Assembly: GCA_016196885.1 (NCBI GenBank)
Contig: JACPWU010000042.1
Location: 1-32,000 of the forward strand
Length of the DNA: 32,000 nt
Direction of reading: 5' to 3'
Source: Chlamydiota bacterium
Lineage (GTDB): Bacteria > Auribacterota > JACPWU01
Part shown: piece after piece, positions 16,026 through 29,157 of the stretch
Numbering within the stretch: the stretch's first letter is position 1
Layout: every line of letters starts with the position of its first letter
Notes under the pieces: model-generated
What the model was told of the DNA's origin: nothing
Seen by the model: the letters and a program-made list of their open reading frames with translations, nothing else
Databases searched by the model: none
Made by a program: the position numbers and the translations under genes

Positions 16026-16128
16026 TTTTTTTGTAGTCGCCCGATTCATCGGGCAGCCCCATGAATGGGGCGACTACAAACAGCGCCCCATGAATGGGGC
16101 GACTACAAAATGAGCCTCACTTTCGAGG
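16026..16128. repeat. GTAGTCGCCC palindromic repeat, copy 2, with tandemly duplicated right half
   Basis: Full unit at 16033-16077, followed by a second ccccatgaatggggcgactacaaaa (16086-16110) and the shared tail aaaatgagcc..actttc. It fills the whole atpC-atpF gap. Confidence 0.85.
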
Positions 16129-17217: not shown

Positions 17218-17317
17218 TAACCCCTCCGGCTCCCCTTAAATAAGGGGAGGGAAAAACCTCCCTTATTCAAAAGGGTAAAACCCCCCTCTTTATTTTAAAG
17301 AGGGGTTGGGGGAGTTA
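17218..17317 (+). repeat. Modular hairpin repeat (TAACCCCTCC...GGGGAGTTA), copy B
   Basis: gtaacccctccggctccccttaaataaggggagggaaaaacctccc...cccctctttattttaaagaggggttgggggagtta. Shortest copy; it fills the atpE-atpC gap. Confidence 0.8.
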
Positions 17318-17335: not shown

Positions 17336-17914
17336 CTACGCCCACAGCTTTTCTGAAACCTCTGCCTTTAGGGCGTTCAAAGCCTTTTCAAATCTGGCTT
17401 CCAAGGTGTTTTCAATTCTCAAACGATGGTCTTCAGTTGAGATGATAACCCCTTTTGAAATTTTTGGATTCGCTTGAATCTGAGCTTCTCTTTTTAACCG
17501 TTTAAAGAGATCTTGGGCCAATTTGACATCATTGGGTGAGACCTCTGCTACGATTTTTCCGGACACACCGATTAAAGATTCTTGAATGAGATTTAAAAGA
17601 AGCTCGGAATAATCTACTTCCTGACTCAATTGTAGAATTTTCTCGCGAGAGGTCTGAAAAATCTTTTCGATTTCCTTTTGTCTTGCCTCTAAAAGCAGGC
17701 GATTGGCTTGAGTGCGTGCATTTCCAATGGCTTTGGCTTCCTCCAAATCCATGATCCGTTTTGATTTGGATAAAATCTCTGCACGGATTTTAGAAGCTTC
17801 TTCTTCTGCTTTTTTTAGAATTTGCTTTGCCTCGCTCTCGGCTTCCTCATGAAGCTTTTTTTTCTCGAGTTCGGCCTCTTGTTCTAGATTTGAAAGCATA
17901 GATTCCATCGACAT
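17336..17914 (-). CDS. atpE: V/A-type ATPase subunit E (peripheral stalk)
   Basis: 192 aa with a long N-terminal charged coiled coil and a C-terminal globular part ending ...RIENTLEARFEKA..., as in subunit E. Position in the operon also fits. Confidence 0.8.
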   Translation of the reverse strand: MSMESMLSNLEQEAELEKKKLHEEAESEAKQILKKAEEEASKIRAEILSKSKRIMDLEEAKAIGNARTQANRLLLEARQKEIEKIFQTSREKILQLSQEVDYSELLLNLIQESLIGVSGKIVAEVSPNDVKLAQDLFKRLKREAQIQANPKISKGVIISTEDHRLRIENTLEARFEKALNALKAEVSEKLWA

Positions 17915-17929
17915 ACGACATCCCTCTTT

Positions 17930-18268
17930 TTATAATACAAAAATAATTAAAACGGCCACTACGAATCCCAAAATAATCATGGTTTCAGGAATGGCTTCCA
18001 AAATAATGACAGATCCAACGAGTTCAGGTTTCTCAGCCAAAGCCCCAGCCGCAGCGGCACCAATTCTTGCCTGAGCGAGTCCTGAAGCCAAAGCGGAAAG
18101 TCCCACAGCGAGGGCTGCAGCAATGGCCTTAAAACCGATGCTGTGGCCTTTTTCGCTTTTTTCAATGGTTGTATCAGAATGGGGGGCTGTCTCTTCAGCA
18201 AAAAGAGGGTGAGCAAAAATGGTGATATATAACCCCACCAATAAACTTCCCATGACGATCTTCTTCAT
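17930..18268 (-). CDS. atpK: V/A-type ATPase proteolipid subunit K (Thermus L-like)
   Basis: 112 aa with a signal-like N-terminus (MKKIVMGSLLVGLYITIFAHPLFAEE). A two-helix c-subunit hairpin follows, with GLAQARIGAAAAGALAEKPE and the ion-binding Glu in AIPETMIILGF. Confidence 0.85.
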   Translation of the reverse strand: MKKIVMGSLLVGLYITIFAHPLFAEETAPHSDTTIEKSEKGHSIGFKAIAAALAVGLSALASGLAQARIGAAAAGALAEKPELVGSVIILEAIPETMIILGFVVAVLIIFVL

Positions 18269-18319: not shown

Positions 18320-18488
18320 TTAACCCCTCCAACTCCCCTTAAATAAGGGGAGAGAAAAACAACCCCTACTTAAAGGAGGAGAGTTCCCCTCTTAAATAAG
18401 AGGAGAAATGTAAAAAAACATTTACTACCGCAGTCGGCTTTGCACTGCCACTGGCAGTGCAGCCTCCCTTGCTGGGTTAGGGGAGTTA
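18320..18488 (+). repeat. Modular hairpin repeat, copy C (its terminal TTA is the atpI stop codon)
   Basis: ttaacccctccaactccccttaaataaggggagag...gcactgccactggcagtgc...gggttaggggagtta. Positions 18381-18488 are the inverted near-identical partner of 20370-20478. Confidence 0.85.
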
Positions 18489-20369: not shown

Positions 20370-20589
20370 TAACTCCCCTAACCCAGCAAGGGAGGCTGCA
20401 CTGCCAGTGGCAGTGCAAAGCCGACTGCGGTAGTAAATGTTTTTTTACATTTCTCCTCTTATTCTAAGAGGGGAACTCTCCTGCCCTGTGCAAGGGGCGC
20501 TTTTTACTCTCCCCTTATTTCAAGCCCTTACAAGATTTTATAGTCCCCGCGGGATAGTCCCTGTGGGAAAGGGGAGTCGGAGGGGTTAA
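20370..20589 (-). repeat. Modular hairpin repeat, copy D (inverted relative to copy C)
   Basis: Read on the minus strand it starts ttaacccctccgactcccc and ends ggttaggggagtta, 15 nt before the atpI ATG. It carries an extra ggggactataaaatctt module shared with copy A. Confidence 0.85.
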
Positions 20590-22088: not shown

Positions 22089-22144
22089 GTAGTCGCCCGA
22101 TTTATCGGGCAATCCATGCATGGCCCCATAAATGGGGCGACTAC
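22089..22144. repeat. GTAGTCGCCC palindromic repeat, copy 3 (variant with internal CCATGCATGG insertion)
   Basis: gtagtcgcccgatttatcgggcaatccatgcatggccccataaatggggcgactac. Confidence 0.8.
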
Positions 22145-22278
22145 AAATGGATGACACTTGACTCAAGTGTATATGCCTAACATCAAAATTCAAAGCTATT
22201 TTGGCTTTACAAATACTAAAATCCAGATTGAAAAGGATTTGTCTAATTGTTAGACTCTCAGCCTCAAGGAGTCAAAAT

Positions 22279-25200: not shown

Positions 25201-25347
25201 CTCGATTCTCGTCCTGAAATGCAAGTTTCTCCCCAGGCGGGAGGGCTTAAAGCGCCTCCGATCCGACGCGAATTACCGAAGGTGGGGCGAAACGATCTTT
25301 GTCCGTGTGGGAGTGGGAAGAAGTATAAGAAATGTTGTGGGATGTAA
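22279..25347 (+). CDS. secA: Preprotein translocase ATPase SecA
   Basis: 1022 aa from the ATG at 22279 (AAGGAG SD 8 nt upstream). Motifs [57 protein letters not shown] and the C-terminal zinc motif [14 protein letters not shown]. The TTG at 22201 is rejected. Confidence 0.95.
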
Positions 25348-25490
25348 CTCCCTAGATTCCCCTCCCTTGATGGGAGGGGCTAGGGGAGGGTGGGTTTTTA
25401 AATGCCACCCCTCCTCCCCTAACCCTCCTCATCACCCCGAAAGGGGCCGTTTCACGGAGGGGGAGGGAATTTTAAGACAGTCTGGGGAGT
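25345..25490. repeat. Divergent member of the C/G-tract hairpin repeat family, copy E (its first TAA is the secA stop)
   Basis: taactccctagattCCCCTCCCttgatGGGAGGGGctaggggagggtggg...ccacccctcctcccctaaccc...ggagggggaggg. Several GC-rich hairpins; the right boundary is uncertain. Confidence 0.55.
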
Positions 25491-28917: not shown

Positions 28918-28994
28918 TGTTTTTCTTTGTTATGAAAGTGGATGATGGATCATGGATGATCGATGTTGGATTCCTTTCTCTCGTTCAAGTTTGT

Positions 28995-29157
28995 GTAGTC
29001 GCCCGATTCATCGGGCAGCCCCATACTCAAGAGGCCATATTCCACCCTACAGGGGTGATTCTTCTGGTGATAGTTTCCAGCCTCTTTATCCTGAGTACTG
29101 TCAGAATTGTACGAATCAAACTTAATGAACTGACTTGTAAATGGGGCGACTACAAAA
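28995..29157. repeat. GTAGTCGCCC palindromic repeat, copy 4, split by a ~113-nt insert
   Basis: The left half gtagtcgcccgattcatcgggcagccccata (28995-29025) and right half aaatggggcgactacaaaa (29139-29157) are contiguous in the other copies. Here they are separated by unrelated sequence. Confidence 0.8.

Follow-up and report, generated by a model that had tools for sequence, protein, structure and literature searches.

The V-type ATPase operon of an uncultured bacterium carries three copies of a hairpin-rich repeat, and the locus raises the question of what such sequences are and how they came to lie there. The window analyzed here comprises the first 32 kb of contig C52 of the host assembly (2.23 Mb in 66 contigs, 44% G+C), and the nearest named relative of its SecA is found in a 'Candidatus Auribacterota' MAG of the PVC group (77% identity). 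An earlier note on this DNA had recognized a family of modular repeats in the window, and had read it as a MITE/REP-like element that inserts at TAA, or supplies it, and that has been co-opted for translation. We arrive at a different reading. The element probably belongs to the G/C-rich intrastrand triplex-motif repeats (BoxC / PIT / TMECO), within which it forms a subfamily particular to its lineage, and it is built from two units set in inverted orientation to each other.

All four canonical copies in the window read TAACCCCTCC...GGGGAGTTA, as had been noted before, with a start of the form TAACCCCTCC(N2)CTCCCC and a finish of GGGGAGTTA (Table 1). The coordinates given earlier hold to within 1 nt, except for those of 8625-8769, which merge a copy at 8626-8753 with a separate fragment, GAGGGGTTAA, at 8760-8769. 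Two further assignments were right in that a repeat is present, but not as to its nature: what was listed as a fragment at 1-42 proves to be a whole triplex-motif unit, with which the contig starts, while the supposedly divergent copy at 25345-25490 belongs to another subfamily, in which the two units stand in the opposite relative order. The V-type ATPase operon, which runs on the minus strand in the order G-like, I, K, E, C, houses three of the copies, and the window's own copies are all intergenic. In the copy at 20370-20588, a GGGACTATAAAA-type module occupies the hairpin loop of the left unit, and the right unit carries the same 71-nt module as the focal copy. The segment 20370-20463 is 100% complementary to 18395-18488, giving a 94-nt inverted repeat around the whole subunit I gene; the other genome copies of the 71-nt module are diverged, unlike this pair. 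The pair appears to stem from a recent event of local copying or gene conversion, and the subunit I gene could be inverted if the two arms recombined. Separately, the window contains a 142-nt perfect direct repeat (959-1100 and 2395-2536, 1.4 kb apart), near or inside the region of a 1,479-aa ORF.

Table 1. Repeat copies, their parts and neighboring genes in the window, followed by loci elsewhere in the host genome (G000) and in a sister genus (G001).
Feature	Position	Strand	Remarks
Focal copy, 168 nt	18321-18488	+	Paired triplex-motif units and nested module
Focal copy, left unit	18321-18352		TAACCCCTCC-AA-CTCCCCTT-AAAT-AAGGGGAG
Focal copy, spacer	18353-18385		
Focal copy, right-unit hairpin	18386-18405		CCCCTCTT-AAAT-AAGAGGAG, one stem mismatch
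Focal copy, nested module, ~71 nt	18406-18476		In second loop of right unit
Focal copy, mirrored third block	18480-18488		GGGGAGTTA; final three bases complementary to the TAA stop of subunit I
Copy, 219 nt	20370-20588	-	Between G-like and subunit I genes
Copy, 100 nt	17218-17317	+	Between V-ATPase E and C genes; both units intact, 33-nt central spacer
Copy, 128 nt	8626-8753	+	Upstream of AAA_22/ExeA-like gene; GGGGACTATAAAA module in right-unit hairpin loop
Isolated left-end fragment	8760-8769	-	GAGGGGTTAA; directly before ATG at 8770; SD-like sequence of the earlier note
Copy of other subfamily	25358-25470	+	CCCCTCCC stems; order [Y-R-R'] TTTTTAAATG [Y'-Y-R]
One complete triplex-motif unit	1-32	-	CCCCTCC / GGAGGGG / GGGGAGG; at contig start
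V-type ATPase subunit I gene, 622 aa	18486-20354	-	Flanked by 18321 and 20370 copies
V-type ATPase K gene	17930-18268	-	Between 18321 and 17218 copies
V-type ATPase E gene	17336-17914	-	Between 18321 and 17218 copies
Module M1, example loci	G000 C54:8020-8090, C63:9585-9655		
In-frame unit pairs in large paralogous genes	G000 C7:2880-3310, C40:1270-1740, C57:27980-28430; G001 loci L167, L176, L178		

A genome-wide scan, which the earlier note had named as a check, showed the family to be interspersed throughout the genome. The left-end pattern TAACCCCTCCNNCTCCCC (16 specified bases, at most one mismatch) occurs 57 times, against 0 for a reversed control, and pairing of left and right ends yields 52 full elements of 62-358 nt. 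With an nhmmer profile built from the short copies, 119 matches were obtained at E<1e-3, counting both strands. Given these counts of left ends, elements and profile matches, the family is real and lies far beyond chance. Counted on its own, the 10-mer TAACCCCTCC is present 81 times, and GGGGAGTTA has 110 occurrences. Units also occur singly, in tandem arrays and in pairs of the opposite order. All four genomes of the host's taxonomic family contain the left-end pattern, with 57, 26, 3 and 3 copies, and it is absent from all 27 other genomes of the phylum sample. A search of the copies against Rfam, at gathering as well as permissive thresholds, returned matches at chance level only.

The anatomy of the element becomes clear from its minimal form of 69-76 nt, which reads TAACCCCTCC-NN-CTCCCCTT-loop-AAGGGGAG-(0-30 nt spacer)-CCCCTCTT-loop-AAGAGGGG-TTG-GGGGAGTTA. 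On its G-rich strand, each unit consists of a pyrimidine arm, a loop of 3-12 nt, a complementary purine arm, a second loop of 2-3 nt, and a third block, again of purines, in which the sequence of the purine arm is mirrored and T may replace A. The right unit is thus CCCCTCTT-loop-AAGAGGGG-TTG-GGGGAGTT(A), and the left unit has the same design on the opposite strand, with the interruption shifted (CTCCCCTT / AAGGGGAG / GAGGGGTT(A)). As the mirrored blocks face outward, the element begins with TAAC and finishes with GTTA. In other words, the terminal TAA/TTA lies inside the mirrored third block (AAAGAGGGG mirrored as GGGGAGTTA), and no target duplication is needed to explain it. The ends had been described as imperfect inverse complements, and they indeed match at 14 of 18 positions, a consequence of the two-unit design. 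When units had to match perfectly and to have asymmetric stems of 8 nt or more, the mirror rule fitted 123 units and a direct-repeat rule only 10, whereas the two rules are inseparable once one mismatch is allowed, a version that is uninformative because low-complexity G-runs satisfy both. The six blocks are 90-100% conserved while the loops and the spacer are free, with a mean pairwise identity of 73% among 15 short copies. Pairs in the order of the focal subfamily, with the mirrored blocks outward, outnumber those in the opposite order by 29 to 17. Folded as DNA, the minimal element reaches -20 kcal/mol (z = -4.1), and the focal copy, folded as RNA in the orientation of the transcript, reaches -75 kcal/mol (z = -6.0) with its ends paired.

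This anatomy is that of the triplex-motif class. A strict unit finder for the three-block mirror design located 143 units, against 0 when the genome was shuffled, and the further traits of the class are found as well: the repeats are multi-copy and intergenic, their stems are better conserved than their loops, and they form inverted pairs of two subtypes. The exact TMECO consensus, CCCTCNCCC N3-6 GGGNGAGGG N3 GGGNGAGGG, has 0 matches in the genome, so that membership in the class rests on design and not on sequence. The design agrees with the class II purine motif as published, and the units pair in the way described for the two unit types of E. coli (Holder et al. 2015, PMC4666352); the BoxC/PIT repeats themselves go back to Bachellier in the 1990s and Hoyne 2000, works that we cite through PMC4666352. 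The same study detected no stable triplex, either in double-stranded DNA or in vivo, and reports that the repeats are not associated with mobile elements.

The modular look that had been taken for a mosaic is genuine, but the pieces sit in the loops of the two units. Longer copies carry there a GGGACTATAAAA-type piece, the 68-nt module M1, the 71-nt piece, or doublets of a GTAG-tagged REP-like family. The GGGGACTATAAAA module, earlier thought to be shared only by the copies at 8626 and 20370, is common to these two within the window, but is also carried by other copies genome-wide. For M1 (TGGTTTCCGCC..CAACCACTTCCTCG..CGGTCG), 12 of the 13 genome copies are found inside hairpin loops of units, always pointing the same way, and we therefore take the mosaic look as nesting, with the loops as insertion hot spots. 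We read the loop modules as secondary, nested insertions that give the element its modular look, and M1 appears to be a small element that targets extruded hairpin loops.

We then have to consider whether the repeats are insertions at all, or sequences that belong to the genes beside them. In two sister genera, whose subunit I is 64-66% identical to that of the host, the gene for subunit I overlaps the G-like gene (TAATG or ATGA), and between I and K there is a spacer of 30 nt or, again, an overlap; neither locus carries an element. The corresponding gaps in the host, of 244 nt (G-like/I) and 217 nt (I-K), are filled by elements. Conversely, five of five syntenic intergenic sites that are filled in a sister genus are empty in the host genome, which indicates that copies have been both gained and lost. 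The comparison of empty sites that the earlier note had named as a check thus comes out in favor of insertion: since the sister genera have empty sites at the V-ATPase genes, the family behaves as inserted DNA. No empty site was found at the level of single bases, either in the sister genera, which are too diverged, or in two metagenome scans, which gave no close relative (best 49% identity); the only other assembly of the locus is a 1,060-nt Logan contig, both ends of which lie within the flanking elements. The same allele is present in the sequencing run SRR12113387. The flanks are asymmetric, being unconserved on the left and reading ATTCAT(TTT) on the right in about a third of the copies, where this sequence in some cases contains the TGA stop of the upstream gene on the other strand and in others not. 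One orthologous copy is apparently common to two genera, and some copies must therefore be old and retained. In sister genus G001, the V-ATPase E-C spacer (L002 4341-4491) holds a different, AT-rich palindromic repeat (aaagtttaaggtttaaag...) where the host has the copy at 17218, and this junction seems to be a recurrent landing site.

Insertion extends into coding sequence. A 72-nt copy in murD (G000 C61:39258-39329) is translated in-frame and adds LTPPTPLNIRGEQPSPYLRGVGGV, which is missing from three orthologues, with an alignment that is ambiguous around the insert. Large paralogous genes contain in-frame unit pairs (right unit, 13 nt, left unit) that are common to two genera. Elements of 323-326 nt (C7:2935, C40:1322) were considered as cargo carriers and rejected, as each combines the left unit of one in-frame pair with the right unit of the next within such a large paralogous gene.

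The overlap with gene signals, which gave the locus its initial interest, was examined across the genome. The stop codons had been placed correctly, as the subunit I gene ends at 18486-18488 and secA at 25345-25347. In 5 of the 52 copies, the terminal TAA coincides with the codon that closes an upstream ORF of 100 aa or more. The host and both sister genera terminate subunit I at the same residue, and all three do so with TAA, so that this stop is most likely ancestral. The element would thus sit exactly at a TAA already present, rather than provide a new one, and its own TAA/TTA belongs to the mirrored block. The SD-like GAGGGG ahead of the ExeA-like gene likewise exists, but lies in the fragment at 8760-8769, outside the copy at 8626-8753. 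In 21 cases, a left end is directed at the beginning of a gene. Three of these have their first in-frame start codon 1-4 nt past the end, and two of the three (3-4 nt) give usable GGAGG spacing; overall, a few copies put GGAGG 8-9 nt ahead of a start codon. In 10 of the 21, the distance to the first start codon is 11-17 nt, more than a canonical site would allow. Many of the downstream genes have kept a ribosome-binding site of their own, among them the V-ATPase K gene with AAGGAG. What remains of a co-option for translation is the occasional, probably incidental overlap with stops and with a few GGAGG sites. Such use is probably a by-product of composition, by which TAA ends and GGAGG blocks would coincide with stops and ribosome-binding sites now and then.

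These observations bear directly on the reading under which the repeat would be an RNA or DNA signal selected by the host, kept because it binds a protein, couples translation or, as a hairpin, governs the processing or stability of mRNA. Such a signal could account for the conservation of the stems between genera at one orthologous site, for the strong structure of the single strand and for the presence of three copies in one operon. It could also account for the left end facing the 5' end of a gene 33 times against 17, with the next start codon at the distance of 11-17 nt given above in 10 of 21 such cases. We nevertheless consider it unlikely, because the orthologous operons of two sister genera do without the element, with their genes overlapping, and because copies occur in both orientations and also in-frame inside murD and other genes. 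Moreover, GGAGG is usually at least 17 nt from the start codon, many downstream genes have a ribosome-binding site of their own, no Rfam family matches the copies, and PIT elements were without promoter or terminator activity in published tests (PMC4666352).

Another explanation, which we hold to be quite improbable, is a classical MITE: a non-autonomous deletion derivative of a DDE transposon (IS630/Tc1-like) that is moved by a transposase in trans. Its terminal inverted repeats would be ACCCCTCC.../...GGGGAGT, and a duplicated TA would flank it. The imperfect inverted repeats at the ends (14/18 positions), the size of 62-358 nt, the intergenic location and the empty sites in relatives all agree with it, and since every copy can be read as TA-element-TA, a TA duplication is formally possible. 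A cognate transposase, for which the earlier note had proposed to look, should then bear the same ends. The genome contains neither DDE_3 nor TnpB, and element ends are lacking within 2.5 kb of its four DDE_Tnp_1 genes, one rve gene and one RAYT-like Y1 gene. The copies are alike in their stem blocks only, and at a mean identity of 73% they give no sign of a burst of near-identical copies. The flanks are not palindromic, the terminal TTA is explained by the mirrored block, and single units, tandem arrays and oppositely ordered pairs exist beside the standard form, so that the MITE reading of the earlier note is not sustained. An IS200/IS605-type reading, with the asymmetric flank ATGAAT beside one end as target site, was also tried and rejected, as the flank accompanies only about a third of the copies and no TnpA/TnpB partner exists.

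Finally, it is very improbable that the element is of REP/BIME type and is mobilized as single-stranded hairpins by the REP-associated tyrosine transposase (RAYT) of the genome: although a RAYT-like gene is present (79.2 bits against a cut-off of 80), the elements are hairpin pairs, and oriented insertions into unit loops suggest that hairpins are extruded, the units lack the GTAG/CGTC tag, no unit ends lie within 2.5 kb of this gene, and a separate, far more abundant GTAG-tagged family (GTAGTCGCCC, 344 copies) suits the enzyme better. This second family is present in the window as REP-like hairpins (GTAGTCGCCCGATTCATCGGGC / GCCCCATAAATGGGGCGACTAC), mostly in inverted doublets, at 11044-11106, 16026-16117, 22089-22147, 28988-29050 and 29132-29156. 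The RAYT-like Y1 gene (G000:C7:8418-9419), the only one of the genome, is likely its partner; in the stretch of C7 that was searched around the gene (first 16 kb), no copy of the GTAG-tagged repeat was found.

When the genomes of 185,579 species were scanned for the left-end pattern, the same left unit was recovered in several distant groups, among them Planctomycetota, several lineages of Patescibacteria, and Alpha- and Gammaproteobacteria, with several copies in some genomes. In 4 of the 52 loci found in this way, a DUF559 gene directly abuts the unit. In a Ca. Falkowbacteria contig (JACRNX010000071.1, L134, 700-1900; CPR), a tandem array of the same left unit with a period of 69 nt lies on both sides of a DUF559 gene. 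DUF559 is a small Vsr-like PD-(D/E)XK nuclease, and the host genome has two such genes (G000 C31:8074-8388 and C63:9256-9564), with a match to PDB 3HRL ('endonuclease-like protein') at E = 2e-24. Both are bracketed by units of the sister subfamily with CCCCTCCC stems, in the order [Y-R-R']-gene-[Y'-Y-R]. In addition, there are at least eight gene-less twins of these cassettes, which have the same ends, 13-15 nt in place of the gene, and a retained TGA after the first unit. The copy at 25358-25470 is such a twin: it has the layout of the host's DUF559 cassettes minus the gene, with a small insert in the second hairpin and the secA stop just upstream. A whole DUF559 cassette is absent from the yraN-comM spacer of the sister genera.

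The association extends across phyla. Among the 80 best DUF559 loci, 58 have a strict triplex-motif unit within 130 nt of the gene; units were found upstream at 37 loci, downstream at 45 and on both sides at 24, with conserved orientation. The block sequences of these flanking units differ by lineage while the mirror relation is kept, and TMECO-type blocks were seen beside DUF559 genes in Moraxellaceae, Pseudomonas and other MAGs. We found no literature on a link between DUF559 and repeats. The nuclease is not needed for the repeats to persist, since sister genus G001, at 95% completeness, has 26 copies and no detectable DUF559 gene, and E. coli, one of 14 well-known control genomes, has no DUF559 match though TMECO repeats have been described there. 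The focal subfamily does not show the cassette order of [Y-R-R'], gene or short spacer, [Y'-Y-R] that is seen at 25358-25470. Its mirrored blocks face outward, while those of the DUF559 cassettes face toward the gene, and the focal element is therefore not a simple deletion derivative of a cassette.

Because related units bracket DUF559 genes in the host and in many phyla, and because gene-less twins exist, our preferred candidate for the spread of the repeats, if a tentative one, is copying via this nuclease: it would act on the units, and repair-templated copying would then spread the copies. Still more tentatively, the triplex-motif units and the DUF559 nuclease may together constitute a so far undescribed cross-phylum mobile system, in which the nuclease cassettes would be autonomous, and gene-less pairs, the elements of the window included, would be non-autonomous copies or homing sites, spread by breaks and by repair templated on short unit homology. 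If true, this would give the BoxC/PIT/TMECO repeats, unexplained since the 1990s, a mechanism. With 58 of 80 loci, the link is in any case concrete enough to be tested, by asking whether DUF559 binds, cuts or copies the units.

As to the element itself, it would best be seen as a selfish or neutral DNA repeat, which operons may tolerate because it lacks a T-tract terminator and because its single strand would fold back into a compact junction. What we describe belongs to a class of repeats that is known but unexplained, to which it adds a novel sequence variant from a lineage new to the class; it behaves as inserted DNA, subject to gain and loss, that is tolerated in operons and even in genes. 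BoxC/PIT/TMECO repeats are abundant in E. coli, in cyanobacteria and in many bacteria, with no known function, origin or means of spread. Here, the same design is found in a distant lineage of the PVC group, with clear gain and loss and with three insertions in an otherwise overlapping V-ATPase operon. For annotation, the family explains inflated intergenic gaps, contig breaks, stops and SD-like sequences that fall within repeats, and in-frame inserts of 24 residues in essential genes.

Several known systems share individual traits with the element. Correia elements of Neisseria and other bacterial MITEs measure 70-220 nt, have inverted ends that start with TA, lie between operon genes and can donate expression signals; the present family differs in that it lacks both a cognate transposase and near-identical copies, shows no demonstrable target duplication, and includes single units and tandem arrays. 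Rickettsia palindromic elements (RPE) are read through in-frame inside genes, like the copies in murD and in the large paralogous genes here, but are unrelated in sequence and design, and the copies of the window are all intergenic. The BOX elements of pneumococci (boxA-boxB(n)-boxC) are likewise modular, with conserved ends and a variable middle, whereas the variable middle here is read as nested loop insertions and not as a variable number of one module. REP, BIME and REPIN sequences come closer, as short hairpins in inverted doublets and mosaic clusters, conserved in their stems only and intergenic in operons, and the REP/RAYT system also offers the precedent of a link to a single-copy domesticated nuclease-type gene flanked by repeats. 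Our units, however, have no GTAG/CGTC tag and possess a third, mirrored block, the linked gene is DUF559 and not an HUH Y1 enzyme, and the host genome has a true REP-like family besides.

The likeness to BoxC/PIT/TMECO goes furthest. Shared with these are the three blocks, the second loop of about 3 nt (TTA/TTG here, TTA in E. coli type A), the stems of 8-9 nt, the multi-copy and intergenic occurrence, the loops less conserved than the stems, the inverted pairs of two subtypes, and loci that vary among relatives with no transposase known. A further mark of that class is a triplex formed in vitro by the G-rich strand on its own, which the units of the host may share. The present subfamily is set apart by its blocks (CCCCTCTT / CTCCCCTT, with A/T-rich stem bases, against CCCTCNCCC in TMECO) and by its host, an uncultured PVC-group bacterium rather than a proteobacterium or cyanobacterium. 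Its terminal TTA block allows copies to abut or supply TAA stops, its loops hold nested repeats, some of its copies are translated in-frame and, unlike what is reported for BoxC/PIT/TMECO in the literature searched, related units here bracket DUF559 genes.
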